Positions 34,033-60,302 of a DNA stretch of 64,000 bases are shown here, in pieces. The notes below the pieces were generated by a model. It was not told the DNA's origin. It did not search any database and saw only the letters and a program-made list of their open reading frames with translations. Within the stretch, counting starts at the first letter, position 1. Every line of letters begins with the position of its first letter. The translations under genes and the position numbers were made by a program. The DNA lies in assembly GCA_032128875.1 (NCBI GenBank), contig JAVLKG010000007.1, forward strand, positions 192,001 through 256,000, written 5' to 3'. Origin of the DNA: Candidatus Melainabacteria bacterium 17Bon1m (lineage in GTDB: Bacteria; Cyanobacteriota; Vampirovibrionia; Obscuribacterales; Obscuribacteraceae).

Positions 34033-34038
34033 CAGACC

Positions 34039-34096
34039 CTCTGTAGGGCCGCATGCGGCTCCCTGACAGGCAGGCACATGTGCCTCCCGTACAGAG
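34039..34096. repeat. REP doublet-like element, second copy
   Basis: Shares GCCGCATGCGGCTCCCTGACAGG with 32398..32452; CTCTGTA/TACAGAG ends. Confidence 0.65.
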
Positions 34097-34249
34097 TTCT
34101 CGGCGCGGGGGTGGGTTTCATTGCCTTGCAGTGAAGCTCACTCCCGTGTTTCCTTCTCTCGTTTCTCGCTTCATCGAAGAAACACAACCCTCAAAAAAAA
34201 GACTCACGTCCTTGGAGGACTACAAGAATCTCCAGGGAGAAGGTGCTAT

Positions 34250-35266
34250 ATGACCCGTACAAGGACCGTTGCGGTCAATCTTGACGCAAGTCACTCGAAC
34301 GAAATTTACCTTGCAGCTCTGAAGCCCAAAGCTGGATTTTTCAGCAAGCTGCTCTCAACCCTCTGGCTGTTTGTCGGACTCGGCGCACTCATCTGGTTCG
34401 CTTGGTCTGAGCCGTTTTCAGGCATGTTCTTCAACTGGTTGCAAAACCACGGCGTGGCACCGTGGGTGGTGACCTATGTCCTCACCCCTCTCGTCATGTT
34501 CGTGCGTGCTGTCATCGCAGTCGAATCGATTGGATACGGTTACCACCGCTTCTTCCAGCATGTCGGCTACTTCACCCGCAAGGCACAGGTGTTTCGGCGG
34601 AACCAGCGTTTTCACTGGATCCACCACATGATCATCTATCCGATCGGGCGTCTCTACAAGCACGGCAAGCGCTACCACACTTCTGAGAAGGGCTTCGGTC
34701 TGAGCTGGGTTCTGCCCGGTCTCATGGCTGCCGGACTCTTTCTCTACACCCACGGCTTCAACATGGTGAGCTTCGCGTTCATCTTCGGGCTGTGGTATTA
34801 CGCCAAAATGGTAGTCGACCTGACGCACGCGCGTTTTCACTTCGACAATCATCCGTGGGTTGGTAAGCCGTATTTCCTGTGGTTGGAGGAGATTCATCTC
34901 CTGCATCACTGGGACCAGCGGTACAACTTCACCATCGTGCATCCGCTCATGGACAGGCTCTTCGGCACCTATCTGGACCCTGCGACTCATCGCAAGGAGC
35001 TTCAGATTTCGCTCGAAGACAATGACGTGACGGTGTCCGATTTGATCAATTGGCGATACCTGCTTACCGAAGCGAGCCCCACTGAGTATGCGGCTTTCGT
35101 GTCGGCGGCGCAGCGCTATCCCAAGTCGCTTCGCAAGGTCAAGCATTTGCTGACCGTGTTGAAGCATCGAACCGACAGTCATCCTGAGGACGCAGAGGCT
35201 GCAGAGTTGCATGCCCGAGCCCTCAATTTGGTCACCGCCGTTGGAAAGACGCCGGAGACCGTTTAG
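34250..35266 (+). CDS. Membrane di-iron desaturase/hydroxylase (fatty acid hydroxylase/sterol desaturase superfamily)
   Basis: His boxes HRFFQH, HWIHH, HARFH, HLLHH with TM segments; DRLFGT. Confidence 0.8.
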   Translation: MTRTRTVAVNLDASHSNEIYLAALKPKAGFFSKLLSTLWLFVGLGALIWFAWSEPFSGMFFNWLQNHGVAPWVVTYVLTPLVMFVRAVIAVESIGYGYHRFFQHVGYFTRKAQVFRRNQRFHWIHHMIIYPIGRLYKHGKRYHTSEKGFGLSWVLPGLMAAGLFLYTHGFNMVSFAFIFGLWYYAKMVVDLTHARFHFDNHPWVGKPYFLWLEEIHLLHHWDQRYNFTIVHPLMDRLFGTYLDPATHRKELQISLEDNDVTVSDLINWRYLLTEASPTEYAAFVSAAQRYPKSLRKVKHLLTVLKHRTDSHPEDAEAAELHARALNLVTAVGKTPETV

Positions 35267-35761
35267 TTTGAAATTCAGGTTGTGATTTAGGTTGATTCTG
35301 GAGACGCCGAAACGTCTTCTGACCAACCGCCTGACTGACTGTCACCGATTAACGCTGTTTCCCGAGAAGGGGGCGTATTTTGGTCTGGTGTTACTGGAGA
35401 AAGACCCGAGCCCAGATGTTTTTGAGCTCCGGTCTTTCTCTCTTGGCCAGCTGCCTACTAGGCTGAGTGGTATGCGCGGTTACTTTACCCGTGAGGCATT
35501 TTCTCCCGCGGGTTGTGAAAGCAGTGCTAGGTGCAAACCGACGCATTAGAGGTTTCGCTCTATGTAAACGCTTGGAAACCGGGCGTGCCCGCACGTAGGC
35601 TGGGGTTATCGCTTCTAGAACTTTTCTTTCCGAGACAACTACCCTCCTTCTTCGTCAACCTTGCACCAAACAGGCTTTCGCCTAACTCCGCGCGCACGCA
35701 CGCAGAGTCGGCCCCTGTCGCAATTGAGTCTCTGGAAGCGATTAGCTGAAAGGTCAGTACC

Positions 35762-36925
35762 ATGTATCACTTGAAGAATAAGACAACTATCATCAACGTT
35801 GGCGTGGAGCGGCTCGGTGTGGTCGCTTCGCCCCAGAGCGTCTTTCAGGAGGAAGGCGTTCTTAACCCTGCCGTGTATCAGGACCGTGCCGGAAACCTCG
35901 TCGTGATGATGCGTTCGGTTGCGAAAGGCAATCAATCGCGTCTCGAGATGATTCGGCAGCCCTGGGAAAACGGCAAGCCGTGCACGGATGCAGCCGGCAA
36001 TGAAGCGCCGTTCGAACGGATCGGATTCGCACTTGTTCCGCAGGCTTCTTACGAACGCCGGCGTCGCATCGGCGAGTCTGGCAAGGTCGAGTTCATCGGT
36101 GGCGAAGGCTGCGAAGATGCGCGCGTGACGTTCATCAAGCAGCTCGACCGCTACCTGATGTGCTACACGGCTTTCGGTCCAGAAGGTCCGCGCATCGCGC
36201 TCGCCTGGTCGCAAGACGGCTACAAATGGCACCGCATCGGACTTCTGCAATTCCCTGAGGAATTCGGACTGCATCCTGACGACAAGGATGCCGCTTTCTT
36301 CCCCGAACCCGTGCTTTCGCCGAAGGGCGTTCTGAGCATCGCGCTGTATCATCGCCCGATGGTCAACATTCCTGCCTCCGACGGCATGGATGTTGTGCAG
36401 TCGACGCTCTCGGCGCGTCCCGACAAGCGCCAGTGCATTCGCATCGCCTATATTCCGCTGGACAAGGTGATGAAGAACATCCGCAACGTGCTCAAAGTCA
36501 GCGAATCGAAGCTCGTCTTCGAGCCACTCGCTGAGTGGGGCTCGTTCAAGTGCGGTGCAGGAACGGCGCCGGTGCGCATCGGTAGCGGCTGGCTGGAAAT
36601 CTTCCACGGCGTGGATCAGTTTCCCTCCGCCTCGCGCCCCTCTGGCTACCAGGGTCGCTACGCGGCGGGGATCATCGTTCACGACATCGATCGCCCGGAC
36701 AAGATCCTCTACTACTCGACGGAGCCTGTCATCAAGCCGGAAACGAAGGACGAGCTGGAAGGCATCGTCAACAATGTCGTCTTCCCGACCGGCATTGTCG
36801 AGCGCACGGACCTGCGTTTCTCGCATCGCGCATTCGGTTACACCGACCGCGTCTTCGATGTCTATTACGGCATGGCTGATCGCCTGATTGGGCGTTTCCG
36901 CCTGACCGTGCGCGAAGAAGCCTAG
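35762..36925 (+). CDS. Glycoside hydrolase family 130 glycosidase/phosphorylase
   Basis: GVLNPA, GCEDARVT, DKDAAFFP, YHRP, NVVFPTG, YYGMAD. Confidence 0.85.
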   Translation: MYHLKNKTTIINVGVERLGVVASPQSVFQEEGVLNPAVYQDRAGNLVVMMRSVAKGNQSRLEMIRQPWENGKPCTDAAGNEAPFERIGFALVPQASYERRRRIGESGKVEFIGGEGCEDARVTFIKQLDRYLMCYTAFGPEGPRIALAWSQDGYKWHRIGLLQFPEEFGLHPDDKDAAFFPEPVLSPKGVLSIALYHRPMVNIPASDGMDVVQSTLSARPDKRQCIRIAYIPLDKVMKNIRNVLKVSESKLVFEPLAEWGSFKCGAGTAPVRIGSGWLEIFHGVDQFPSASRPSGYQGRYAAGIIVHDIDRPDKILYYSTEPVIKPETKDELEGIVNNVVFPTGIVERTDLRFSHRAFGYTDRVFDVYYGMADRLIGRFRLTVREEA

Positions 36926-47354: not shown

Positions 47355-49820
47355 TCAGTTCTTCTTCAGCGAAGCTGCGGCTCCGTTGTCTGCCGGTCCG
47401 TCCTTCTTGAGAGAGACGGTGGCGTCGCCTTTGCCTTCAGCGTTGCCTTCGCCGGCGGTTTCCACAGTGGCAACCTTTTCCAGCGACACCGGCTTGGCCA
47501 GCGAGATCTTCTCTTCCGGAGGATTTTCCGCAGAGAGCACGAGCGTGTTGCCATCGGCACCAACGTTGACCTTGGCGCCGTGCTTGACGGACCCGTCGAT
47601 GATCTTTTCGGCCATCGGGTCTTCGATGAGCGCACGAACGGCGCGCTTCATCGGACGTGCACCGAACTGCGGATCGTAACCCGCCTCCAGCAGCACAGCG
47701 CGAGCGGCATCGTCGGCGTCGAGCGTGATGCTCTTCTCGTTGAGCTTCTTCTCCAGTGCCTTCAGCTGCAGCTTCAGCACTTCGCGCAGCTCGTCCTTGG
47801 ACAGCTGACCGAAGCAAACGATTTCGTCCAGCCGGTTGAGGAATTCCGGGCGGAACATCAGCTTGACGATCGGCATCACCTCGTTGAGAAGGTCCTGGTG
47901 CGAGCAGTCGACGCCGAGCTTTTCGAGCAAGGCCATGATCTGCTGCGCGCCGATGTTCGACGTCATGATGATGATCGTGTTCTTGAAGCTGACCGTGCGA
48001 CCCTGACCGTCGGTCAAGCGACCGTCGTCCAGAACCTGCAGCAGCACGTTGAACACGTCGGGGTGCGCCTTCTCGATTTCGTCGAGCAAGATGACGCTGT
48101 AGGGCTTGCGCCGCACAGCTTCCGTCAGCGTGCCGCCTTCTTCGTAACCGACGTAGCCCGGAGGCGCGCCGATCATGCGCGAAACGCTGTGCTTCTCCAT
48201 GTATTCGCTCATGTCGAGACGAACGATGTTGCGCTCCTCGTCGAAGAGGAACGACTGGAGAGCCTTGGAGAGTTCGGTCTTGCCCACGCCGGTCGGGCCG
48301 AGGAACATGAAGCTGCCGATCGGAGTGTTCGGGTCTTTCAACCCTGCACGCGAACGACGCACCGCACGCGACACGGCGGAGATCGCCATGTGCTGGCCGA
48401 TGACGCGCTTGTGCAGCTCATCTTCCATCTTCGAGAGGCGGGCGGCTTCATCGATGGTCAGCTTGTCCAGCTTGATGCCGGTCATCTGGCTGATCTTTGC
48501 TTCGATGTGCTCCTTGCTGAGTTCGGTGCCCGGGAAGTCGATAGCAAGCGCGCTACCGGCTTCGTCGATGACGTCGATGGCCTTGTCGGGCAGGAAACGG
48601 TCGGTAATGTACCGGTCCGCCATGTGCGCTGCCGTGACCACCGCTTCGTCAGAGATGGTGATGGCGTGGTGATCTTCCAGCGACTTCTTGCGGCCGCGCA
48701 GAATCTCGATGGTGTCTTGCACGGACGAGGGGTCCACCGTCACCGGCTGGAAGCGACGCTCGAGAGCGCCGTCCTTTTCGATGTGGCGGTATTCGTCCAG
48801 CGTGGTGGCACCAATGGCGGTGATCTCTCCGCGGGCAAGTGCCGGCTTGAGCGTGTTGCTCGCGTCCATTGCACCCTGCGCAGCGCCGGCTCCGATCAGG
48901 GTATGCAGTTCATCGATAAAGATGATGCAATCCTTCGTTGCCTGGAGTTCGGCGAGAAGCTGCTTCATGCGCTCCTCGAACTCACCGCGGAATTTCGTAC
49001 CGGCGACAAGAGCGACCAGGTCAAGGCGCAAGATGCGCTTTCCCTTCAGGCTCTTGGGCACGCGATCGAATGCAATCTCAACGGCAAGCCCTTCGGCGAT
49101 GGCAGTTTTGCCGACGCCGGGCTCGCCGATGAACACCGGGTTGTTCTTGGTCTGACGACCGAGAATTTCGACAGCCCGGCGGATTTCCTTCTTGCGCCCG
49201 ATGATGGGCTGGATCTTGTTCTCGCGAGCCAGCTTCGTCAGGTCGACCGTCATCTGGTCGAGCATGGAAGTCATGGCGCCTTCGCCTTCGGGCAGACCGT
49301 TGACGTTAGTCTTCACGGCTGCATCGAGGAAAGACGTCAGATTCTTCAGACGCTGTTCGGGAGTGAGATTGCCGTCGACTTGAGCGCCGCCCGGCAAGAC
49401 GATCGGAGGCTGATTCCGGCGTTCGATCGTCAGGAACGCGGATTTGATTACTCGCTGACCATCCGGGTGTTTCACCAGTTGGTGCAGCAAGTGAGTGGGA
49501 GTCGTGCAAATGTGCTTGTTCTTTTCGGCGACTTCGCCGGCTTTCACAAGCATTTCTTGGGCGTCGCGCCCAACTTCTGGTGCTGCGACTGTCGTCGTTC
49601 CACCTCCGGCCTGCGGCGAACCAAAGAGGTTTCGCGCAGTGCGCTCCAGGATGTCGGCCGTGAGACCGGCTTCCAAAAGGAGCTTGTGACCCAGAGATGA
49701 ACTTTCAGCTGCCACAGCCACCACAAGACACGCTACGTTTACATCTTTGGTGCCGATCGCAGCAGCCTTGAGGCCGGCGAGCGTCAGCACTTTGTCGAGT
49801 GATTGCGAGTTTTGCGGCAT
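47355..49820 (-). CDS. Class I Clp/Hsp100 AAA+ ATPase (ClpA/B/C family) lacking a middle domain
   Basis: Clp-N repeats, [65 protein letters not shown]. Confidence 0.93.
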
Positions 49821-50021: not shown

Positions 50022-50711
50022 TTAGTCGAAATTCCGCGTCATCGTGTACAGCGGACGGAGACCGAAGATGATCTCGTTGTCCAGGGTGTCTTCCTTGCCG
50101 CCCTCGATTGCCTGGTAGCGGATGAACTGCCAGACAGCCAGACCGGAGACGGTCTCGGCGGTGGGACCCACGGTGATCGACGTGCCGCAAGCGGAAACTT
50201 CCGCCTTGGCGTCGTCATAGAGGGTCGCTTCCCAGCCCTTCACCTGAGCGGGCTTGGTGGGGTTGAGCGTGTAGATGCGGCCCTCGGTCGCGCCCATGCG
50301 GGTCTCGATCATGAGCTTGGTGCGCATCTTGTAGCGGATGCCCTTGTTCCAGATCTCCTTGCGCGAAGCCATCGTGTCCGTGAGCAGGAACACGACGTCA
50401 CCGAGAGTCTGCGAACCATCGACGCGCTCGTTGTGCGTGTGGATCTTCAGACCGGTGGCAGCCTTCACGACTTCCGCCAGCGCCTCGACCTTGAGCTTGC
50501 CGATGTGCGACTGGTCGTAGGCCTGGTTGGCGATGTTGTGGGCCTCGACGATGTCGAAGTCCCAGACGTGGATGTTTTCCAAACCCAGCTTGGCCAGGCT
50601 CAGAACGATGCGCGAACCAGTTGCACCGGCGCCGATGACGTCGATGCGCTTGTTGCCGAACGCGTCACGCGAAAAGATTTCGACGTGTCGAGTGATATCG
50701 ACATTGTTCAT
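50022..50711 (-). CDS. ThiF/E1-family ubiquitin-like activating enzyme
   Basis: VIGAGATGS, DFDIVEAHNIANQ, IGKLKVEA, TDT...R, single Cys in SACG; AAGGAG RBS. Confidence 0.9.
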   Translation of the reverse strand: MNNVDITRHVEIFSRDAFGNKRIDVIGAGATGSRIVLSLAKLGLENIHVWDFDIVEAHNIANQAYDQSHIGKLKVEALAEVVKAATGLKIHTHNERVDGSQTLGDVVFLLTDTMASRKEIWNKGIRYKMRTKLMIETRMGATEGRIYTLNPTKPAQVKGWEATLYDDAKAEVSACGTSITVGPTAETVSGLAVWQFIRYQAIEGGKEDTLDNEIIFGLRPLYTMTRNFD

Positions 50712-50808: not shown

Positions 50809-52575
50809 TTACTGAGCGTCGTCCGGGAGCCGGTCGGCGCGGTTGTTGGGATTGGACGGCTTCGGACCCTTGTAGTTGGTGCTCCAGGGGTGCGACGGAT
50901 CGTTGCAGTTCTGGGGCGTGCAGCGCTTCTTAGGGCGCTCGGAAGTCGTCGACTGATAGGGCTGGGGTGGGGTGGGACCGCTCTCGAAGAGGCTGCCCAA
51001 CCAAGCGAAGAAACCTTTCTTCTCCTCGACTTGAGGACCGGCACCGCCCTTGTAGGCGCCGGGCTGACCATTAAAAGGGGTGCCACCCGGACGAATGTCC
51101 TTGCCGGTGGGAATCAGCTCGCCATCGACCACCTGGCTGCCGACATCGTCGGGGCCCGCGGTGGCGCCGGGAGCGCTCGCGTCGCCGGTACCGGCGGCGT
51201 TGTCACCCTTCTCATTGGCGCCGGGCTTGCCGTCGCCGTTGTTGTCATCGCTCTTGCCGAACCAGTTCTTGAACACCGTGAACGTGCGCTCCTTCACCTT
51301 CGCCTTGTACTCGGCGGTGACTTCGGCGCGCAGCTCAGCGCTGATAGCGAGCGGGTCTTCCTTCTTCGGCGCGGGCTTTTCGGCCTCGTCGCGGTTGAGG
51401 AAATTGCTCAAGCCGGACTTCTCGTCCTGCTGGCGAGCTTGCTCTTCCTGGCGCTCCTTCCAGGTGCTCTGGTAGCCGCCCTGGCTGTAGCCGTAGCCCG
51501 AGGGACGCTCGTCGCTACGACCACCCTGCCACCACTTGCGAGTGACGGTGCCGCGCTCGAGGATGACCCTGCCGCTCTCCGGGTCCATCACTCCCCACGG
51601 CACGTCGAGAAGACGGTAGCCGAGCTGGAAGTAGTAGACGTCGAAGCAGCCGCGGCCGAGCTTGTTGAAGATGCCGCGGATGTAGTATTCGTGGCCTTCG
51701 CGAGCGAAGCGCTGCATGGTGCTCTCGTCGGTGCCGGACGGGCTGGTGCCCATACGCACGTGCGAGTGACCCCAGAAGTGCAGCTTGTTGGACTTGTCCA
51801 AGCCTGCGTCGCCGGCTTCCAGAAGCTCGAGGATGAGCTTCTCGGTGCCCTGCACGGACAGCTCCGTCTCGGTCGGAGTGACTTCCTGTTCGACCAGGAA
51901 AACCTCTTCGATGAGGAAGTCGCCGTTGGGGCGCTTGCTGACGGTGCCGAGCCAGCCGACTTCCTTGGGCGCCAGCTCGACGTACAGGCACATGCGCTTG
52001 TACGCGTCGGGCGTCATGTAGACGGTCGGAGCCGGCGGGTCGAAGATGAGCTCAGCGCGCGTGTGCGGGTAGTGCGGCTTGAAGGGGCCTTCCGGCTCGC
52101 GGTAGACGTAGGACTTCTTCTCTTCCTTCTTCTCGCCGGCCTTGTCACCGCCGGTGGTGTCGCCGGTCTTGGCGGCATCGCCTTCCTTGGCAGCACCTTC
52201 GGACACGGTCGCGCCCTCGGACACCGCCGCGCCTTCGCTCACCGAGTTCAAGGGAGCGCTGGACGTCGGCAGCGGGGGCGGGACATTCGTGCTGGACGTA
52301 CCCGTCGTTGCACCGGAGGTGCCGTTCGATGCCGGAACGCGCGGGACGCTCGTGCCGCTGGGCTTGTCGCCCTTATAGACGGGCTTGCCGTCGCCGGAAT
52401 TGGTGTCCTTCTTGGCCGCGCCGCCGTTCAGCGGGAAGCCGAACAGCTTCTCGAAGAAGCCGGGACCGGACTCGATGTTCTCTTCATTCGGATTCACCGG
52501 GCGATTGGAGCCGGCGCCGTCGGACTCGGTCGTGCGAATGACCGGCTTTGCCGACTTGTTGTCGTCGTTATTCAT
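50809..52575 (-). CDS. JAB/MPN+ (JAMM) metallopeptidase with long disordered termini
   Basis: KEVGWLG ... WGHSHVRMGTSPSGTD fits E-xn-HxH-x7-S-x2-D; AGGAG RBS. Confidence 0.88.
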   Translation of the reverse strand: MNNDDNKSAKPVIRTTESDGAGSNRPVNPNEENIESGPGFFEKLFGFPLNGGAAKKDTNSGDGKPVYKGDKPSGTSVPRVPASNGTSGATTGTSSTNVPPPLPTSSAPLNSVSEGAAVSEGATVSEGAAKEGDAAKTGDTTGGDKAGEKKEEKKSYVYREPEGPFKPHYPHTRAELIFDPPAPTVYMTPDAYKRMCLYVELAPKEVGWLGTVSKRPNGDFLIEEVFLVEQEVTPTETELSVQGTEKLILELLEAGDAGLDKSNKLHFWGHSHVRMGTSPSGTDESTMQRFAREGHEYYIRGIFNKLGRGCFDVYYFQLGYRLLDVPWGVMDPESGRVILERGTVTRKWWQGGRSDERPSGYGYSQGGYQSTWKERQEEQARQQDEKSGLSNFLNRDEAEKPAPKKEDPLAISAELRAEVTAEYKAKVKERTFTVFKNWFGKSDDNNGDGKPGANEKGDNAAGTGDASAPGATAGPDDVGSQVVDGELIPTGKDIRPGGTPFNGQPGAYKGGAGPQVEEKKGFFAWLGSLFESGPTPPQPYQSTTSERPKKRCTPQNCNDPSHPWSTNYKGPKPSNPNNRADRLPDDAQ

Positions 52576-52590: not shown

Positions 52591-53451
52591 TCAGGCTCTT
52601 GCGAGCGGCCATTTGTCGATGAACTTGCTCATGTCGTCTTCGCCGACGCTCTCGACGAACTGGATAGCCAGCTCGGCGACGGTGGCGAATTCGAATTGCG
52701 CGATGAGCTCGAGGAGGGTTTCCTTGATTTCATCGATGCAAGCCGTGCCGTCCGGGTAGACGCGAGGCGCGTTCATTCCGGGCTGCACTGTGCGTACGCG
52801 GCGAGTGCTGTTGAACCATCTGACACCGTCATCCAGACCATCGGTGCGGATGACGATCATGTATTCACCCAGCTCATGCTGTTTGCCAGACTTGGGATGG
52901 GTGGCGACGAGAGTCTCGGTGAAGACCAGAAGCGCACCGTTGGTGACGCGAACGGCCTTCACTTTGTCGACCGCCATCAGGCGATCGTACTCGTCCGAGA
53001 AGCGCTGCTTGAGCGCGTCTTCAGGAAGGTTGGTGGAACCAACGAAGTGGTGCCGGGCATTCTTCACGAAGACTTCTTGCGCGGGACCAAGCTTCTGCTT
53101 GCGACTGTTGATCTTCGCAACTGCCTGCTTGGCCATGTCGCCGAGTCGCGCGGAACACAGCTCGATGTACCGCGCACGCGATGCCAGCATGGTCGCGTCA
53201 TATTGACGCCCGCGCAAATTGGTCGTCGTCACCACCGTGGGCGCGGGAGTGAATGCGAGCGTGAGCTGGTAAAAACCTTCGTACTCGGTTTCTTTCTCTG
53301 TGGCAGTGGCGCCCAGCAGCTTGAGTGCTTGCTGGAGATGCGCCTCGCCGATGATGATCGAGACGTCGTCCCACGGGTAGTACACCACACCGTGGTCGTG
53401 CAGCATCTGCTTATCGTTTGCGTCCAGGTTTGGAACGATATAGCTCTTCAT
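52591..53451 (-). CDS. Short E2/UBC-like protein (Cys retained, PHV changed to PRV)
   Basis: C-terminal domain homologous to that of 53467..55371; APRVYPDGTACI; GGAGGAG RBS. Confidence 0.65.
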   Translation of the reverse strand: MKSYIVPNLDANDKQMLHDHGVVYYPWDDVSIIIGEAHLQQALKLLGATATEKETEYEGFYQLTLAFTPAPTVVTTTNLRGRQYDATMLASRARYIELCSARLGDMAKQAVAKINSRKQKLGPAQEVFVKNARHHFVGSTNLPEDALKQRFSDEYDRLMAVDKVKAVRVTNGALLVFTETLVATHPKSGKQHELGEYMIVIRTDGLDDGVRWFNSTRRVRTVQPGMNAPRVYPDGTACIDEIKETLLELIAQFEFATVAELAIQFVESVGEDDMSKFIDKWPLARA

Positions 53452-53466: not shown

Positions 53467-55371
53467 TTACCTGGCGACAGGCCAGCTGGTGATGTAGGCG
53501 CCCCAGTTGTCGGCGACGTTCACCGACTCGACAAAGGCGATGGCGAGCTGCACCGCAGAGGCGAGCTCACGCTTTTGAATGAGCGACGGGAAGAGATCCC
53601 GAGTATTGCCCATGCAAGCGTTGCCGTTGGGATCGACGTGCGGAGCGTTCATGTTGCCGTTGCCACCAGGGACCTTGCGGGTTTTGTTGAACCACTTGAT
53701 CATGTTGGTGGAGATGTCGATTTTGATGTCGAACGCGCCGATCTCGTGCTTCAGTCCCGTGTTCGGGTTGACGCAGTAGAGAACATCGGTGCTGACGACA
53801 ATCACGTTGCCGTCCACGCGAACGCCATTGACGTTCGCCAGCGTGGTCAGCTCATCGAACTCGCGGCCGATTTCCTCAGCCGGAGCAGCTTGCAGGCGTA
53901 GGAAATCGAACTCTTCCACAAGTGCACCACGCAGGTGCGCATGGAATGTCGCCTGCGAAGCGTTCAGATCAGCAGCGCTGATCTTTTTCGATTTGCCGGC
54001 ATTGAACTGACGCGTGCATTCCTGCACGTAGTGATCCGCGACTTTGCGCGTGATCACATTGTTGTCCGCGTCCACTGCGCCCTGCACTTCTTTGCGCACT
54101 TCCAGCAACAGTTTGGCAGCCAGAGCCGCTTCCATCTTTGCACCGAAGTGGACGTAGTGCATGTGCAGGTAGAGATTGCGTCCAACAATCTCGCCGACGA
54201 TAAAGCCGTTGTCGTCGATGAGTGGCATGCCGTGAGCCGAGGGTGCGAAGGCGGTTTCGCGCTTGAGCATGCGATGCCCCCAGACTCGCTCCGGTGCCGT
54301 GAGACACGGTGCACCGATGGGCGAGGAGTGCATGAAGATGCGGAAATTGCCGTCGTTGACAGGCGTCGCGTTGAGCCCGTTGCAATCGCGAATGATCACG
54401 TTGGAATTGACGACCGGCGTGAGGATCTCGCGCACAAGTGACGACAGCACAACCAGCCGTCGGCCGGTGATGCCTTCGCCTTCTACGCGGAAGTCAGTCG
54501 TGTCGGCATTCTCCACCGCCTGATTCTCAGCTTTAACCGAGGCGATCAGGTCTTCGAGGAACTTGTCGGCAGCCAGTTCGCCGTGCACCTGCTGCAGAAT
54601 TCTGAGCAGAAGACCGGCTCGCGCCTTCAAGTTCTTACGCGTGACCAGGTCGAGGTGGACATACAAGTTGCTGTCCACCAGCTCGCCGAGCGCGAAGTTG
54701 GTGTTGGGCTCGATGATCGGCACGCCCGTTCCGGAAGCGCCGAACACCGTATGACCGGTGCTCATCTGCGCTCCGAGCAGCCTCTGCGGCGGAGTCACAC
54801 CACCTGCCAGATTCTGTGGCGTGCTGAAAAGATACAGATGGAATTTCCCGTCTGTTGCGGGAGCTGCGGCTTGACCGTTCTTCAGGTGAACGACGATGTC
54901 CTTCTTCACGCTGGGCATGAGAGCATCGTTCACCAGAGCTGCAAGGCGGCGGCGATTGAGCCGGCCTCTGAGGTCGTACCACTTGAGAGATCCAGCGACT
55001 TCGGTCTTGAAGCCGCTTAACGCGGGGTCGCGCCTTTCAGGGAAAGCGAGAACCGCTTCCTCGAATGCCCGACCGCTTGATGGGAAGACTTCGACCACGC
55101 GCGCTTTGAGCAGTCGCTTTGCCCTTGCAAATGACTGTGGGGAAAACGAGATACCGTCTTCTCCAGCTCCAGCGCTTGTTTGAGTGTAGGGGATCGAAGC
55201 CAGACGCAGCTTCTCCTTTTGCTCTTCGGTGAGCCAACGAACAAACACCTGAGAAGGTGTTCCTGGGCGACCAAAGAACAGGTGGAGATAATGCTGCGCA
55301 AAGGCGAGCAACCCGGCGACTATGAAGACGCCTGTGCCAGCCAACGCGAGAGTTTGCTGAAACTCGTTCAT
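53467..55371 (-). CDS. Membrane-anchored multidomain protein with C-terminal E2/UBC-like domain
   Basis: N-terminal hydrophobic helix; APHVDPNGNACMG matches E2 HPNIxxxGxICL spacing; Cys codon 53614-53616. Confidence 0.72.
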   Translation of the reverse strand: MNEFQQTLALAGTGVFIVAGLLAFAQHYLHLFFGRPGTPSQVFVRWLTEEQKEKLRLASIPYTQTSAGAGEDGISFSPQSFARAKRLLKARVVEVFPSSGRAFEEAVLAFPERRDPALSGFKTEVAGSLKWYDLRGRLNRRRLAALVNDALMPSVKKDIVVHLKNGQAAAPATDGKFHLYLFSTPQNLAGGVTPPQRLLGAQMSTGHTVFGASGTGVPIIEPNTNFALGELVDSNLYVHLDLVTRKNLKARAGLLLRILQQVHGELAADKFLEDLIASVKAENQAVENADTTDFRVEGEGITGRRLVVLSSLVREILTPVVNSNVIIRDCNGLNATPVNDGNFRIFMHSSPIGAPCLTAPERVWGHRMLKRETAFAPSAHGMPLIDDNGFIVGEIVGRNLYLHMHYVHFGAKMEAALAAKLLLEVRKEVQGAVDADNNVITRKVADHYVQECTRQFNAGKSKKISAADLNASQATFHAHLRGALVEEFDFLRLQAAPAEEIGREFDELTTLANVNGVRVDGNVIVVSTDVLYCVNPNTGLKHEIGAFDIKIDISTNMIKWFNKTRKVPGGNGNMNAPHVDPNGNACMGNTRDLFPSLIQKRELASAVQLAIAFVESVNVADNWGAYITSWPVAR

Positions 55372-55424
55372 ATGGGGTCCACCTATTAACGGCGACGCAC
55401 GGCCTCATAGAGAGACACTAAAGA

Positions 55425-55453
55425 GAAGTGGCTCCCCAAGCGGGAGCCACTTC
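55425..55453 (-). terminator. Stem-loop after the Ubl gene (weak terminator or mRNA stabiliser)
   Basis: GAAGTGGCTCCC-CAAGC-GGGAGCCACTTC perfect 12-bp stem, short UCUUU tail on the - strand. Confidence 0.6.
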
Positions 55454-55523
55454 GACCAACAATGTCACGTAGGAAGCCGTCGCACCTCAATGCCTTGAGA
55501 TAGCGACTGACGAGTTGACGGTC

Positions 55524-56285
55524 TTAGTTGCCGCGGACGGGGCGGAGCAAAAGAACCGTCTGGCCGTCGGTGACCGCAGTGGTCAGCGAAGCCGGCTGGC
55601 CGCTGACACGGATGTCGTAACCCGAAGCGTCGACCTCGGCCTGGCGCAGCACGGACTGGACGGTCCAGCTGTTGCCCTCGAGGACGAGCTTCTTGATGTT
55701 GCCGGGGACGCCGACGTTCACGGAGATCGTTCCGGTTGCGCCGCCGTTGTCCTTGTTCAGGTCGACGTTGCCGCGCACGGGGCGGAGCAAAAGAACCGTC
55801 TGACCGTCGGTGACCGCGGTGGTGAGCGAAGCCGGCTGACCGCTGACGCGGATGTCGTAGCCGGAAGCGTCGACCTCGGCCTGGCGCAGCACGGACTGGA
55901 CGGTCCAGCTGTTGCCTTCGAGAACGAGCTTCTTGATGTTGCCGGGAACACCGACGTTCACCGAGATGGTGCCGCCGTTGTTCTCGTTCTTGCCCAGGTC
56001 GACGTTGCCGCGAACGGGGCGGAGCAGAAGGACGGTCTGGCCGTCGGTGACAGGCGTATCGGCGTTGGACGGCTGACCGCTGACGCGGATGTCGTAGCCG
56101 TTGGCGTCGATTTCGGCGTACTTCAGGACGTCCTTGACGGTCCAGCCGTTGCCTTCGAGAACGAGCTTCTTGATGTTGCCGGGAACGCCGACATTCACGG
56201 AGATGGTGCCGACGGCAGCGGTATTGTTGGTGCCGGTGGCGGAATCGGTGGTCGTGGCCGTTTCGGGCTTGTTCAGGTTTGCCAT
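55524..56285 (-). CDS. Tandem tri-ubiquitin-like (beta-grasp) protein
   Basis: Three 68-aa units with beta-beta-alpha-beta pattern (ISVNV, KKLVL, TVxxVL, IRVSG, VTDGQTVLLL), each ending RPVRGN; AAGGAG RBS. Confidence 0.85.
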   Translation of the reverse strand: MANLNKPETATTTDSATGTNNTAAVGTISVNVGVPGNIKKLVLEGNGWTVKDVLKYAEIDANGYDIRVSGQPSNADTPVTDGQTVLLLRPVRGNVDLGKNENNGGTISVNVGVPGNIKKLVLEGNSWTVQSVLRQAEVDASGYDIRVSGQPASLTTAVTDGQTVLLLRPVRGNVDLNKDNGGATGTISVNVGVPGNIKKLVLEGNSWTVQSVLRQAEVDASGYDIRVSGQPASLTTAVTDGQTVLLLRPVRGN

Positions 56286-56464
56286 GATGTTTAGCTCCTT
56301 TGACTTCGTACGAGAGTGAGACCGTGATCAGGTCTCGGGGTTGGTGTGTTTCCTGCTCTGTCCACAGCAATCAAAAAACCCAAGCGCGCGCTACCCCGCA
56401 GCGGTACCGCTGGTGGTGACAACAAACTATCGAACGCGAATGGGGTTGAGAGGTGGGTGAAAGA

Positions 56465-56576
56465 GCGAAGGGAAAAACGAGGAAACACAGGATCATGTAA
56501 CTAGCAAAGAGGCTCTTGCTATTACAACGCGCGTATATGCATGCATGTTACCTGTTATGAAAAACTCTCGCGCGCA
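56465..56576 (-). promoter_or_regulatory. Probable promoter region of the Ubl operon, homologous to 60537..60640
   Basis: Collinear shared blocks GCGAA(A)GGGAAA, ACAGGATC(A)TGTA.CTA.CAA, GCATGT, CTCGCGCGC. Confidence 0.5.
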
Positions 56577-57035
56577 CAAACGTAGTTCTAATGAGCTTCT
56601 TGAGGTGCTGTCAAGAAATAGACTCTCGAAGATATACATATGCTTTCGAATGCTTTAACAGATTCAAAGCAGACTAGAGATTCGCGCAGTTAGATACGGG
56701 CGTGCGGAACCTTGATCTCTTGGCATTTTGTTGTTAATAGTTGTCAGTTGTTGGTGTTGCCTGTGGCGACAAGCATTTGATTGGTTTTCAAGAAAGTGGC
56801 TGTCAATAGATGTTTGGTGTGGTTTGTTTTCAAGTGCTAGCGCTGCTTTCCAAAGGTTGAAGGTCGCCGGACTGCTGCTTGACTAGTGGTTTCTCTATTC
56901 ATTTCTATATGACATCGCGAGCCAAAATTGGATTTGCCGTAACTTATTTCGTGCGCCTGAGGTATTGCTGATAGATATGCGGCTTCCTAAATAAGCAATC
57001 GCTACAGCTTTGGAGATGTCGGCTTCAATGACTGC

Positions 57036-57111
57036 TCTGCTCTTGTTACTGCTCTAATGACTCTTCTGCTCTTGTTATTGCTCTAATAACTCTTCTGCTC
57101 TTGTTACTGCT
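57036..57111. repeat. 29-bp tandem repeat x about 2.6
   Basis: TCTGCTCTTGTTAYTGCTCTAATRACTCT starting at 57036, 57065, 57094. Confidence 0.8.
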
Positions 57112-57132
57112 TGAATTACTGCTCGCCATGTA

Positions 57133-57304
57133 CTCCGAAATCCCGGGATTTTTCGGAGTACATGAAGAGCAGTTGCACAGCAAGCGTTTCCGGGTTTTTA
57201 GCCGTTTTGCGTAGCATCGAGATGAGATTTTGAGTCATGGTTTTATGGCCATTTCGGGACTTCTGAGGGTGTTTTCTCCTCCGAAAAATTCCGAGTTTTC
57301 GGAG
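57133..57304. promoter_or_regulatory. Two copies of palindrome CTCCGAAA-N10-TTTCGGAG
   Basis: 57133..57158 and 57279..57304: same arms and spacer length, different spacer sequence. Confidence 0.55.
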
Positions 57305-57459
57305 TGGATGGGCGAGTTGAAATTTCAGAATGGACTCAGGGAAAAACTCGAAGTCTCCGCAAATTTTGGTCGGGCACCGTATATGGTGCCAGGTTGATCA
57401 AATTTTTTTTGGGAAGTAATTCCGGTTAGGCGCTTAAAACGAAAAAGCAATAAAAGTGC

Positions 57460-57518
57460 AAAAAATGGAAGCCATGAGTACGAGTTTGCAAAACAAACTT
57501 GGTGTACTCATGGCTTCC
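57460..57518 (-). terminator. Intrinsic terminator after the second E2 pair
   Basis: GGAAGCCATGAGTAC/GTACTCATGGCTTCC 15-bp stem, A-rich run on the + strand. Confidence 0.75.
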
Positions 57519-57554
57519 CGAATTGATCAGATTTGGTTTGCTGTGACTCTCAGC

Positions 57555-58418
57555 TCACAGCAAAGGCCACTTACTCACGTACTTGCCGTACTCGTTGGCT
57601 TCCGGGTTCTCGATGAACTGGATAGCCAGCTCGGCTACCGTAGACAGTTCCAGGCGCGCGATCAGCTCCATGATTGTGGCATGGATTTCAGCGGCGCCTG
57701 CTCTGCCGTCGGAGAACACAGTCGGCGCCTGCATGCGCTCACGCACGCCGTCGACGCGGCGGGAGTTGTTCTGCCAGCGGATGCCGTCCTCACTGCCGTC
57801 CAGATAGACGGTGATGAGAAACTGGCCAATTTCATGGCGGAAGCCGCTCTCCGGGTCTGTAGCGCAGAGAATCTCAGTCGAGATGAGGAGCCTGTTTGGC
57901 ACCACATGCACCGCCTGAACACCCTGCACCATGCGGACACGCTCCAGTTCTGCGACCAGCGTCTGTCCCGCGTTTTCGTTGCCGGCAATCTTGCTCGAGC
58001 CGAAGACTTCCGTCCGCTTGCTCGTCACAAAGCGCTGCTTGGCTGCAGAGAGCTTCTTGCGATTGCCGGAGGCGGTACTGGCAGCGGCGTCGAGAATCGA
58101 CTTCGTGCGCGACTCACAGGCCTTGATGTACCGCTTGCGATACTCCAGGCGTTCGGCTTCGCGACGCAGTGTTTCCGCATCAACTTCGTCGTTCTTGCCC
58201 TGCTCTTTTCTCTTCTTCTTGAAGGTGAGCTTGAGCTTGTAGACGTTTTCGTACTTCGATTTGCTCTTGGCGCCGGTGGCGTTCAGGACAGCCAGCACGA
58301 TGTCCAATTGCGTTTCCTCGAACATGATGCCCGAGTCCCACGGATAGTGCTGCACGCCTGCATTGGTCAGCAAGCTCAGCTGCTCATCCGTGAGGTCTTT
58401 CACTAGATAGCTTTTCAT
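57555..58418 (-). CDS. Short E2-variant (UEV-like, no catalytic Cys), paralog of 52591..53451
   Basis: MKSYLV start with AGGAG RBS; APTVFSDGRAGA aligned to APRVYPDGTACI; TVAELAIQF...KWPL shared. Confidence 0.65.
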   Translation of the reverse strand: MKSYLVKDLTDEQLSLLTNAGVQHYPWDSGIMFEETQLDIVLAVLNATGAKSKSKYENVYKLKLTFKKKRKEQGKNDEVDAETLRREAERLEYRKRYIKACESRTKSILDAAASTASGNRKKLSAAKQRFVTSKRTEVFGSSKIAGNENAGQTLVAELERVRMVQGVQAVHVVPNRLLISTEILCATDPESGFRHEIGQFLITVYLDGSEDGIRWQNNSRRVDGVRERMQAPTVFSDGRAGAAEIHATIMELIARLELSTVAELAIQFIENPEANEYGKYVSKWPLL

Positions 58419-58439
58419 TTTGCTTCTCCTGGGCATGCA

Positions 58440-60302
58440 TTACACCTCGCCTACGGCTTCGGGAAACAGCGAGATTCCCTTGCCCCAGGCATCCGAGGTG
58501 TTGACCGATTCGACGAAAGCAATAGCCAGCTGCACTGCTGAAGCGTATTCGCGCTTCTTGATGAGCATCGGGAAGAGGTCCTGCGTGTTCCCGAAGCACG
58601 CCTTGCCGCGGCTGGAAACATGCGGAGCATGCATTGTGCGGCTCTCCATTTGGATGGTCCTGGTCTGGTTAAGCCAGGTCACCTCCGAGTTGGAATCCAT
58701 CGGGATGGTGATCTTGAACTCGCCGATTTCATGCCGCTTGCCCGAGCGAGGATCAACGCAGTAGAGCATGTCGGTCATGATCACGATCGACTTCTGCTTC
58801 ACTTCCACCGACCGCACTTTGTACACTCGGCAGAGTTCATCGAACTCGCGCCCCAGCTCTTCAGCTCCGGAGTGCTCGAGCCGGAAGACTTCGGCGTCTG
58901 CGATCACAGCGTCGCGCAGAGCCTTGCTCAGTTCTTGCTCGCTTACAGGCTTGTCGTTCTTGCCGGCTTTGACGCTCGCTGCAATCAGTGCCGCTTCTTC
59001 TTTGAGGTCTTCCTCCGTGAAGCGCGGACCACCTGCGCGTGCAGCCTGTTTTTCCACCAGCTTGCCTGCTTGGACAAACAGTCGAGCAAGCAGCTTCGCT
59101 TCCGCTTTGGAGGCGTGCGTGAGCAGGTACTGGTGAATGTACAAGTTGTTGCCGACGAGTTCTGCGTAGATGAAGCCGCTGGCTTCGAAGAGCGGGATGC
59201 CCAGACCGGTGGGACCGAACGCCTTATCCTGGCGAATCAAGTCACAACCGAGCAGCTTCTTGGGCACGTCTTCGCCTGCGCGTCCGGCGACGGCAGAGTT
59301 GAAGAAGACGTGAAACATGCCGTCGTTGAGCGGGCGCTGCGTCTGTCCATGGCAGTTCTTCACGTGGATTTCTTGCCGCAGGTAGGGGCTGAGGAACTTG
59401 TGGATGGTGGCGCGCACAACGGCACGCTCTCCCGCTTCCTCGAAGCCCTCGTCAGCGATCGTCTGGCGACCAGCCGCTGGTGGTATCCCTTCGCCTTCCT
59501 CGGCGTAAACTTCCTGAAGGAATTGTGCCGGGTCGCGCTCTATGAGCACCCGTTGCAAAACCCGCGTCAAAAGCGCATAGCGCTGCTCTTCGCCGAGCTG
59601 CCAGAAGTCAGCGTAAATATAAAGCGCGCCCTTCGTCAGTTCGCCGACGATGTAGCCGGTGGCCGGATCGATAACCGGAGAGCCGGTCACGGAGTAGACA
59701 TACGAGTGCTGCGGCGCAACCTCGATGTCGAACACTCGCGGGGGCAATTGTTCGCGCGTGCTTGTGCGCGGAACCGTGCCGAAGAGGATGTGGAAGTTGT
59801 GGTCGTATTCGCGATCAACGCGCCCGTTGGCGTCGAGCGTCACTTTGATGCGCTTGTCCAGGCGACCGGCTAAGACCGCATGAACAACCTGTTGCACTCG
59901 CGGCGCGGTTGTTTTGTCACGCTTGTTGACCCAAACTGTAATCTGCTCGAGGTTATGGGCGTTTGCATTCTCGTGGGGGAAAGCGAGAACCGCCTCGTGC
60001 AGCTCTTTGCCGTTGAGCATCAAGGACGCTGTGTGCGTCGCATTCAGCGCGGCTAGAGCTCGGGGAAGATGGTCGTACTTGACGATGATACCGGCAGTAG
60101 CGTCCGGTGCGTTGCCGGTCTCAAACTGAACACCAGCAGCCCGTAGAGCCTCTTTGTGCGTATCTTGCAGATAGCGCATGAAGTAATTCTTCGGACGTGC
60201 CAGGTATTTCTGAAGCAGCCGCCAGGCTTTCCATCCGCCGTAACCGAGCAGAGAGATACCAGCAGCAGCTAGAGATACATAGATAATCATTTGCCAGGGC
60301 AT
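58440..60302 (-). CDS. Membrane-anchored multidomain E2/UBC-like protein, paralog of 53467..55371
   Basis: N-terminal TM; APHVSSRGKACFGNTQDLFP; ASAVQLAIAFVESVN identical in both paralogs; Cys codon 58596-58598. Confidence 0.72.
   Translation of the reverse strand: MPWQMIIYVSLAAAGISLLGYGGWKAWRLLQKYLARPKNYFMRYLQDTHKEALRAAGVQFETGNAPDATAGIIVKYDHLPRALAALNATHTASLMLNGKELHEAVLAFPHENANAHNLEQITVWVNKRDKTTAPRVQQVVHAVLAGRLDKRIKVTLDANGRVDREYDHNFHILFGTVPRTSTREQLPPRVFDIEVAPQHSYVYSVTGSPVIDPATGYIVGELTKGALYIYADFWQLGEEQRYALLTRVLQRVLIERDPAQFLQEVYAEEGEGIPPAAGRQTIADEGFEEAGERAVVRATIHKFLSPYLRQEIHVKNCHGQTQRPLNDGMFHVFFNSAVAGRAGEDVPKKLLGCDLIRQDKAFGPTGLGIPLFEASGFIYAELVGNNLYIHQYLLTHASKAEAKLLARLFVQAGKLVEKQAARAGGPRFTEEDLKEEAALIAASVKAGKNDKPVSEQELSKALRDAVIADAEVFRLEHSGAEELGREFDELCRVYKVRSVEVKQKSIVIMTDMLYCVDPRSGKRHEIGEFKITIPMDSNSEVTWLNQTRTIQMESRTMHAPHVSSRGKACFGNTQDLFPMLIKKREYASAVQLAIAFVESVNTSDAWGKGISLFPEAVGEV

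Follow-up and report, generated by a model that had tools for sequence, protein, structure and literature searches.

A polyubiquitin-style tag gene heads a ubiquitin-like operon in a Candidatus Melainabacteria bacterium

A 64,000-nucleotide stretch of the genome of Candidatus Melainabacteria bacterium 17Bon1m (GenBank assembly GCA_032128875.1, contig JAVLKG010000007.1, positions 192,001 to 256,000 of the forward strand), belonging to the family Obscuribacteraceae of the order Obscuribacterales, was analyzed and is referred to below as the window. On its reverse strand, at 55524..56285, lies a gene, designated poly-Ubl, in which one open reading frame (ORF) encodes three ubiquitin-like (Ubl) units, two of them identical in protein and different at silent sites. 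Poly-Ubl heads a conserved operon that also encodes an E2-like protein (X634), a smaller E2/UEV-like protein (X286), a predicted JAMM peptidase, an E1, and a Clp/Hsp100 ATPase, and the locus is a variant of the bacterial ubiquitin-like systems with a polyubiquitin-style tag gene. The reading that we favor, with a probability of roughly 0.6, is that the ORF is a polyubiquitin-like precursor, consisting of three complete ThiS-like beta-grasp tags, each with its own leader-like spacer and activation tail, which are joined in frame and would be cut to single tags and conjugated. In the labels used below, G000 is the genome of the window, other G numbers are genomes of relatives, L numbers are loci, and P numbers are database proteins; all features of the window described here are on the reverse strand.

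The poly-Ubl protein has 253 amino acids: after a 26-residue leader come three beta-grasp units of 68 residues each, separated by two linkers. Unit 1 (amino acids 27 to 94; 56004..56207) represents the U1 type, and unit 2 (amino acids 106 to 173; 55767..55970) and unit 3 (amino acids 186 to 253; 55527..55730) represent the U2/3 type. Linker 1 (VDLGKNENNGG; 55971..56003) has 11 residues, and linker 2 (VDLNKDNGGATG; 55731..55766) has 12, with replacements and one indel relative to linker 1. All three units end in LLLRPVRGN, with the stop codon directly after the last Asn, and Tandem Repeats Finder reports the array at 55527-56211 with a period of 240, 2.9 copies, and 86% matches. The protein matches Pfam ThiS (PF02597) at 30.4 bits (cutoff, 22.5; E value, 6e-7), which places it in the ThiS/MoaD family at the profile level. 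The AlphaFold2 model contains three beta-grasp domains with a predicted local distance difference test score (pLDDT) of about 90, and the linkers are modeled as disordered (pLDDT of <50 for residues 94-103 in linker 1 and 176-183 in linker 2); together with a predicted template modeling score of 0.33, the model suggests three domains without a fixed arrangement, like beads on a string. The best Foldseek matches of the model are linear tetra- and tri-ubiquitin (7yui; E value, 7.6e-9), ISG15, and bacterial multi-ubiquitin proteins. The leader motif ANLNKPE resembles the linker starts VDLNKDN and VDLGKNE, and in the relatives P0012, P0016, and P0018 the linker start likewise resembles the protein's own N terminus (GN-LDLTKP versus MNLTKP), which indicates that each unit resembles a copy of the whole gene. 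Poly-Ubl thus has the architecture of a polyubiquitin precursor, with complete units head to tail and a full tail on each; the units do not abut and do not end in Gly-Gly as those of polyubiquitin do, being separated by spacers of 11 and 12 residues and ending in Gly-Asn. The long ORFs on the opposite strand and in another frame over the repeat were rejected as coding because all differences between units 2 and 3 fall at position 3 of the Ubl frame.

Between units 2 and 3, 14 of 204 nucleotides differ (9 transitions and 5 transversions), in 14 codons, all at third positions and all synonymous, without an amino acid change. By the Nei-Gojobori method, the numbers of synonymous (Sd) and nonsynonymous (Nd) differences are 14 and 0 over 54.2 synonymous and 149.8 nonsynonymous sites, giving a synonymous distance (dS) of 0.317 and a nonsynonymous distance (dN) of 0, and the one-sided 95% upper bound on their ratio omega, computed from these site counts, is about 0.09. 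Since 27% to 33% of the possible single-base changes in unit 2 are synonymous, the probability that all 14 would be silent by chance is 1.2e-8 to 1.8e-7, and none of 100,000 random draws was all synonymous. This indicates that the purifying selection is real, and purifying selection on the protein is the sole reading that keeps silent differences while removing replacements. The same pattern recurs in all five three-unit genomes, with Sd values of 14, 11, 9, 3, and 9 and Nd values of 0, 1, 0, 0, and 0. (Near-)identity in protein with differing silent sites characterizes units 2 and 3 and does not extend to unit 1, which differs from unit 2 at 12 of 68 residues (36 nucleotides in 24 codons). 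The differing positions (21, 25, 26, 29, 30, 33, 36, 47-50, and 52) map to the helix and its surroundings and to the loop preceding the final strand of the AlphaFold model, and positions 1-20 and 53-68 are identical. These 12 columns are among the most variable ones of the family (mean entropy, 1.84 versus 0.48 bits; Mann-Whitney p = 1.7e-7), and the unit 1 protein is identical in G000, G011, and G007 and carries one change in G008. Unit 1 is plausibly a second tag type, the U1 and U2/3 types being separate in the tree described below; the location of its differences in such variable columns, however, is a counterpoint. An earlier sequence-only reading of this DNA had described the 14 silent differences, the 12 replacements of unit 1 between invariant ends, and strong purifying selection with the signature of eukaryotic polyubiquitin. 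Both counts were reproduced exactly, the selection is borne out by the distances given above and by the comparison across related genomes, and silent drift with a constant protein is what has been described for polyubiquitin (PMC10457151).

The Gly-Asn tail is a feature of a large family. A word-indexed search with the whole protein returned 26 relatives, and a scan of genome contigs returned 11 loci, every one of them in a record with Candidatus Melainabacteria or Obscuribacterales in its title. Among 40 genomes of relatives, matches occurred in 12 of the 24 from the window's family and in none of the 16 from other families, and the unit profile had no match at an E value of ≤1e-5 in 300 other sampled genomes of the phylum, which is a sample and not proof of absence. 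Searched against 1.84 billion representative proteins, the single-unit profile matched 642 at an E value of ≤0.001 and 202 at ≤1e-10. The 171 stored matching proteins contain one (40 proteins), two (99), three (26), or four (6) units. Among 324 units with complete profile ends, 304 end in Gly-Asn, 15 in Gly-Ala, and 5 in Gly-Gly; the Gly-Asn ending is found in 150 of 160 units at internal positions and in 154 of 164 at terminal ones, and all units share the last four residues in 115 of 122 multi-unit proteins. The best co-resident unit pair is 60% to 80% identical in 61 of 123 family proteins and identical in 4 of 123, omega is 0.08 to 0.31 in 11 unit pairs of the wider family, and the tails stay conserved even in pairs that are 60% to 70% identical with a dS above 1. 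In one subgroup (P0122, P0130, P0108, P0159, and similar proteins), two units with VAMKMIKGN tails precede some 140 residues in which no Pfam domain was found; these proteins may be tags fused to a cargo or enzyme domain. Single units are encoded at L025, L026, and L027, and in a more distant member of the Obscuribacterales (L028, 10001-10632) two single-unit tag genes in different frames, ending in RGNK and RGN, replace the fused gene upstream of the same E2-like, JAB, E1, and AAA+ genes. When 10 family proteins were looked up in clusters, "sulfur carrier protein ThiS" was the only source name returned. In the full-text literature searched, neither a Ubl family with Gly-Asn tails nor any ubiquitin-like system of Melainabacteria was found described; such operons may be listed in the operon supplements to the Bil and Bub papers, which were outside the search. 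As a side observation, a protein of 7296 residues in the representative library (P0032) contains 16 stretches that match the unit profile (E value, 1.3e-51).

These tails bear on whether the units are ever separated. The domains might instead stay joined, as in ISG15, FAT10, and the Ubl3 proteins of the Bil and Bub systems, so that only the last tail is activated and the inner tails are relics of duplication or serve packing or binding. Bil/Bub Ubl3 proteins, with three domains, act whole and assemble Ca-dependent filaments (PMC11601603), the Citrobacter and Escherichia coli multi-ubiquitin structures 9d5a and 9cd2 are among the Foldseek matches of poly-Ubl, the cleavage of poly-Ubl is a prediction, and units 1 and 2 differ at 12 residues, as specialized domains would. 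Against a protein that stays whole, however, inner tails are kept as strictly as terminal ones even at a dS above 1, the units are encoded by separate genes at L028, the linkers are modeled as disordered and repeat the N-terminal leader, the wider family includes proteins in which two tailed units are followed by some 140 residues, and no Pfam multi-ubiquitin model matches at E values up to 0.1. An uncleaved multi-domain Ubl is possible and, on this balance, rather unlikely.

It is very improbable that units 2 and 3 owe their identity to a very recent duplication, to ongoing gene conversion, or to a collapsed or chimeric assembly and not to selection on the protein. Units 2 and 3 do cluster by genome in G002 and G008, silent-site patterns appear mosaic (the first 11 variable sites of unit 2 in G011 resemble unit 3), and the Logan contigs break inside the repeat. 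Conversion or recent copying, however, would erase silent differences too, yet 14 remain without a replacement. Three-unit orthologues are also present in four other species-level genomes of the genus (G011, G007, G008, and G002), with two units in G004, G012, and G015 and one in G020 and G024. Contigs of four public sequencing runs from four studies, one of which may be the source of the window itself, tile 55300-56500 by exact matches with 0 to 2 differing letters, and the two differing letters, in run X9 at 56325 and 56327, lie outside the array. The contigs bridge the junction of units 3 and 2 (55659-55862) and that of units 2 and 1 (55920-56099), and no joint skips a unit. They break within a stretch of about 50 bases common to the units, and therefore no single contig spans the whole array.

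The sequence-only reading had also held the array to be an old duplication, neither an assembly artifact nor a fresh expansion. The assembly is upheld by the other genomes and by the contigs of the public runs, and the age by two lines of evidence. First, unit 3 of G000 groups with unit 3 of the sister species G011 (support, 90/96). Second, the dS values of neighboring genes against their orthologues are 0.11 to 0.37 (G011), 0.19 to 0.84 (G007), and 0.36 to 1.28 (G002), and those of unit 1 against the same genomes are 0.04, 0.10, and 0.47, i.e., the Ubl units evolve more slowly than their neighbors; the distance of 0.32 between units 2 and 3, which matches the neighbor divergence from G011, therefore corresponds to the age of the species split or is older. 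A single old event, on the other hand, did not stand. In G002, units 2 and 3 have seven replacements in common relative to G000 and group as a clade (99/94), in G008 they have two in common and cluster with support of 91/66, the number of units varies from one to three among relatives, and a single clade of all five unit 3 sequences was rejected by the approximately unbiased (AU) test (log-likelihood lower by 59.5; p = 7.7e-5). For a unit 3 clade of the four closest genomes, a group chosen after the tree had been seen, the AU p value is 0.02. In P0002, a database relative, it is the U1 type that was duplicated. The U1 and U2/3 types separate across seven species (U2/3 clade, 100/99; U1 clade not rejected, p = 0.37). 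In sum, there are two lasting unit types, within which units were repeatedly born or homogenized under purifying selection throughout. This history is one of birth-and-death or concerted evolution, as in polyubiquitin, for which the choice between these two modes has long been debated (PMC10457151).

Downstream of poly-Ubl lies X634 (53467..55371). In this protein, a hydrophobic N-terminal segment, which by its sequence is probably a membrane anchor, precedes a large middle part, and the C-terminal domain is UBC/E2-like and carries the motif MNAPHV..G.AC.GN, invariant in alignments; the corresponding domain of its paralogue is E2-like in its modeled fold, as described next, and a faint PADLOC E2 match (E value, 0.051) was obtained. 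X286 (52591..53451), a small paralogue, comprises an N-terminal alpha/beta domain, a long helix, and a UBC-like domain, and its Cys is kept in the genus and lost in the distant orthologues of L027 and L028, which are UEV-like there. The AlphaFold2 model of X286 has a pLDDT of 74, and all of its top 50 Foldseek rows are E2 proteins or E2-containing complexes, at weak E values of 0.013 to 0.1. Residues 144-285 gave a middling VIA Z of 7.4 with a root mean square deviation of 3.6 to 3.9 Å over 117 residues, and the modeled fold is thus described as E2-like and not as a proven E2. A second E2-like pair lies upstream of poly-Ubl (57555..60302), consisting of X620 (58440-60302), with the Cys kept and a hydrophobic N terminus, and the small paralogue X293 (57555-58436), in which the Cys is replaced (Gly/Ala) and the site reads AGAA. 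The (N/H)APxV..G.AC motif is found in X634, X620, and X286, and the Cys is absent from X293; this combination of Cys-bearing and Cys-less paralogues resembles pairs of an active E2 and an inactive UEV. The upstream pair is present at L018, L020, L022, and L021, only X293 is visible at the contig start of L019, and the pair was not found within 3.9 kb upstream at L023 or 10 kb upstream at L028. The presence of two E2-like pairs does not track the unit number.

The predicted JAMM/JAB metallopeptidase (588 amino acids; 50809..52575) has a core at residues ~160-345 between low-complexity flanks. Its E...HSHx7Sx2D motif is invariant in 7 of 7 aligned relatives, Pfam Prok-JAB matches 5 of 7 family members below the threshold (best E value, 0.016), and the nearest named protein Atlas clusters are JAB (0.96). 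The minimal E1 (229 amino acids; 50022..50711) is a ThiF-type adenylation domain (Pfam ThiF, 78.5 bits; cutoff, 28.1). Its GxGxxG motif, Asp112, Arg138, and Cys175 are kept in 7 of 7 relatives, bacterial and viral, and its match to phrog_15670 (1.4e-19) covers almost the whole protein. The conserved block closes with the gene for a two-ring Clp/Hsp100 AAA+ ATPase (821 amino acids; 47355..49820), which contains Pfam AAA_2, AAA_lid_9, and ClpB_D2-small; the ClpB and ClpA models score below their cutoffs on this protein. The ATPase is an additional paralogue, with 46% to 55% identity to the products of three other Clp loci of the genome, and is syntenic at L018, L020, L022, L023, and L028. The order Ubl, X634, X286, JAB, E1, and AAA+ is complete in four of the five related loci that reach far enough; at L023 no tblastn match to JAB was obtained, although a 1.8-kb gap is present there. 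For X634, X286, X293, X620, and the JAB protein, the faint E2 and subthreshold Prok-JAB matches were all that came from Pfam, NCBIfam, PADLOC, and PHROGs, the protein Atlas gave only unnamed clusters for X286, a PDB sequence search with the JAB profile found no JAB, and PDB sequence searches with X286, the JAB protein, and poly-Ubl returned nothing relevant.

A terminator-like hairpin (55425..55453) with a 12-bp stem containing 8 G-C pairs lies between the poly-Ubl stop codon and the start of the next gene. The spacer of about 150 nucleotides around it (55372-55523) folds beyond shuffled controls (z = -4.4), its structure is kept in seven genomes with compensatory changes in 8 of 31 predicted pairs, and an invariant AGGTGGA precedes the next start codon. 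The hairpin may be an attenuator that sets the tag-to-enzyme ratio, with more tag mRNA than enzyme mRNA. The 1.27 kb between the upstream E2-like pair and the tag gene (56286-57554) contains no ORF of more than 72 amino acids, has a lower G+C content, and includes a 29-nucleotide tandem repeat (57027-57111; 2.9 copies, 91% matches); no sigma-70 promoter was found in a scan of 55300-57600. Contigs of a run labeled RNA-Seq (X2) cover the entire tag gene (55300-56500) at a word depth of 31 to 99, which is not counted as expression because DNA may be in the library.

The core of the operon is also found in viruses. Among IMG/VR viral contigs, 12 of 12 relatives carry the Ubl beside E2-like, JAB, and mini-E1 genes, mostly in the order Ubl, E2, JAB, and E1, with rearrangements at L030-L032. 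Together with the phrog_15670 match, this indicates that the core cassette is phage borne, and the window contains an enlarged chromosomal version of it. In cultured phages, relatives of the E1 occur in 35 records, mainly of Flavobacterium and Xanthomonas phages, and are annotated as thiamine biosynthesis protein in Flavobacterium phage FpV4 (L041) and Xanthomonas phage PhiXhv-15 (L042); the unit, E2, and JAB profiles matched nothing within 5 kb on either side of the E1 gene in these two phages. The JAB core matched only one uncultured phage record, and a plasmid search with the E1 gave no match at 1e-6. A second, simpler cassette is present in the genome of the window (L002; contig C19 of G000, 32858-36307), where a two-unit Ubl of 166 amino acids with tails LLLKPVQGN, followed by SVLGN after the last one, is directly followed by a 364-amino-acid JAB and ThiF. 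No E2-like gene lies between tag and JAB/ThiF at L002, an E2 gene could lie beyond the 3.4 kb seen, and cassettes of this type also occur in G007, G002, and G005 (L015, L016, and L013).

That the locus is a ThiS/MoaD-ThiF sulfur carrier system for cofactor or thio-modification chemistry and not for protein tagging is scarcely credible. Pfam ThiS and ThiF are indeed the only curated matches, one source names relatives after ThiS, and the E1 is a minimal ThiF-like enzyme, yet the tail is Gly-Asn and not the Gly-Gly of thiocarboxylate carriers, the conserved partners include two to four E2-like proteins and a JAMM peptidase, the 13 neighboring proteins scanned with Pfam include no thiamine or molybdopterin family besides ThiS and ThiF, and the ThiF and MoeB equivalog models score far below their cutoffs (e.g., 65.6 versus 159).

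In the precursor reading, the operon JAMM peptidase would cut at the Gly-Asn tails, after either the Gly or the Asn, and release single tags. The 229-residue E1 would then adenylate the C terminus of a tag, probably passing it on via the invariant Cys175, and the tag would be transferred to the Cys of the membrane-anchored E2-like protein with the aid of the small E2/UEV-like paralogue, to be finally attached to targets; the Clp/Hsp100 ATPase may act on the tagged proteins. New units would arise by unequal crossing-over or gene conversion. Because each unit must fit the same E1, peptidase, and E2, replacements would be purged while silent sites drift, and this process, with the birth and conversion of units, would explain why units 2 and 3 are identical in protein with 14 silent differences and why co-resident units change together between species. 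A model of the JAB core in complex with one unit scored 0.90, compared with 0.53 for the best control, at a mark that was attained in 58 of 80 solved complexes and in 2 of 110 mismatched pairs. The contacts of its three runs coincide completely (100%), the pLDDT of the partner is 93 or higher, and the tail, at residues 62-68, is in contact with residues 114, 116, and 126-129 of the HxH...S..D motif. Solved JAMM-ubiquitin complexes exist, and because of them the passing score may only reflect likeness.

Several points weigh against this precursor reading. Cleavage, conjugates, and targets are predicted, the JAB assignment comes from a motif, subthreshold Pfam matches, and language-model neighbors and not from the protein's own fold, and the organism is known from metagenome assemblies alone. 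Multi-domain bacterial Ubl proteins with structural likeness to poly-Ubl act whole, as described above. The Gly-Asn tail, in place of Gly-Gly, leaves the cut site or the chemistry unexplained, the E1-activated protein tags described in the cited literature all ending in Gly. In addition, co-resident units of the wider family usually differ in protein, and identical units are thus not the family rule; that units 2 and 3 are identical reflects their being a fairly young, strongly constrained pair. Finally, an excess of constraint within genomes depends on the comparison: the Sd:Nd ratio of 26:0 for units within genomes differs significantly from 26:15 against deep orthologues (Fisher p = 2e-4), and close orthologues (12:1, 13:1, and 14:0) show no difference. 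A stronger constraint on units within a genome than on orthologues is not claimed.

Among known systems, eukaryotic polyubiquitin (UBB, UBC, and yeast UBI4) is similar in that one ORF carries beta-grasp tags in head-to-tail order, each complete with its activation tail, and linear polyubiquitin is the best structural match of the poly-Ubl model. Polyubiquitin also keeps its protein while silent sites drift, its repeats are more alike within a genome than between species, and its unit number varies (PMC10457151). In contrast to polyubiquitin, poly-Ubl is outside the ubiquitin sequence family, its curated match being ThiS, has spacers of 11 to 12 residues, a Gly-Asn tail in place of Gly-Gly, and two unit types per gene, and would be processed by a JAMM metallopeptidase encoded next door. 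The Bil systems (BilA Ubl, BilB E2, BilC JAB, and BilD E1; types I and II) share the order Ubl, E2, JAB, and E1, with two E2-like genes in the window, and some BilA proteins have up to three beta-grasp domains (PMC10557695, PMC11601603). However, the E1 of the window is a single 229-residue ThiF domain without the feature given for Bil E1 enzymes in PMC11601596, the residues after the BilA Gly are not conserved, whereas an Asn follows the Gly in 304 of 324 units of the present family, and the E2-like proteins here are large, one with a hydrophobic N terminus, and are accompanied by an inactive-looking paralogue and a Clp/Hsp100 ATPase. The Bub (6E polyUbl) systems have in common with the window a minimal E1 of the homodimer type (PMC11601596) and, through 9d5a and 9cd2, a structural match of their Ubl3 proteins to poly-Ubl. 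They differ from it by a JAB-E1 or E2-E1 fusion, a DUF6527 serine protease, and Ser/Tyr oxyester catalysis (PMC11601596), whereas in the window JAB and E1 are separate genes, a Cys is invariant in the E1 and the large E2-like proteins, and no DUF6527 match was found among the 13 proteins scanned; and while Ubl3 is used whole in filaments, each poly-Ubl unit keeps its own tail between spacers modeled as disordered.

PRTRC (ParB-related, ThiF-related) loci offer a further comparison. These are small mobile cassettes that combine a minimal ThiF and a JAB with an E2-like protein and a small Ubl. The E1 of the window weakly matches the PRTRC model TIGR03736 (1.5e-9), but at 37.5 bits against a cutoff of 144.75, which does not place it in that family, and the PRTRC A, B, and C models and Pfam Prok_Ub and Prok-E2 had no match to the Ubl, the E2-like proteins, or the JAB at an E value of ≤0.1.

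The invariant Asn of the tail can be read in two ways by analogy with known systems. In other tags, an invariant dipeptide before a variable extension usually marks the mature end, and the Asn may likewise be the mature end of the tag; about half of the family proteins stop exactly there (80 of 164), and 36 of 164 have one further residue. Alternatively, the JAB peptidase may remove the Asn, whose invariance would then reflect a need of the peptidase on the far side of the cut. Precedents exist for the latter: Bil and Bub JAB peptidases, the Bub case including a Ubl-E2 fusion, cut just after the conserved Gly of their Ubl (PMC10557695, PMC11601596), and in the Bil systems this processing extends to a one-residue cap in E. 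aridi BilA; BilC removes the single Ala after Gly97 (PMC10557695). For the Asn as the mature end, the only precedent found of an E1-like enzyme acting on a terminal Asn is MccB of microcin C7, a ThiF-fold enzyme that activates a C-terminal Asn, the acyl-adenylate collapsing to a succinimide (PMC12250964). MccB differs from the E1 of the window in that its substrate is a 7-residue peptide held by an RRE clamp, which the 229-residue E1 does not have, in that no thioester is formed, and in that its product is a nucleotide antibiotic and not a protein conjugate; the likeness between the two enzymes is offered as an idea. Carried further, this analogy would make the Gly-Asn-tailed proteins the first Ubl modifiers activated at a C-terminal Asn, with a minimal E1 that adenylates the Asn as MccB does, possibly by way of a succinimide, two tag types supplied at a fixed 1:2 dose, and an operon Clp/Hsp100 that reads the tags as a bacterial and phage counterpart of the ubiquitin-unfoldase axis. 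We regard this scheme as a doubtful proposal with the odds well against it.

Bacterial ubiquitin-like conjugation (Bil, Bub, and CBASS Cap2) is a young field, in which the multi-domain tags known so far act as intact proteins. Whether bacterial tagging can feed an unfoldase, considered unlikely in current reviews (PMC11601603), is a question on which the conserved Clp/Hsp100 partner would bear. The invariant Asn turns the tail into a testable question, i.e., whether it is a one-residue cap removed by the peptidase or the residue activated by the E1, and all parts are small and expressible in E. coli. The locus shows another, eukaryote-type solution, in which complete tags are repeated in one gene with the signature of polyubiquitin, namely, silent drift, protein identity, units that change together, and a variable unit number. 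This design is placed in a large Gly-Asn-tailed family, not found described in the literature searched, that is common to phages and one family of nonphotosynthetic relatives of the cyanobacteria.

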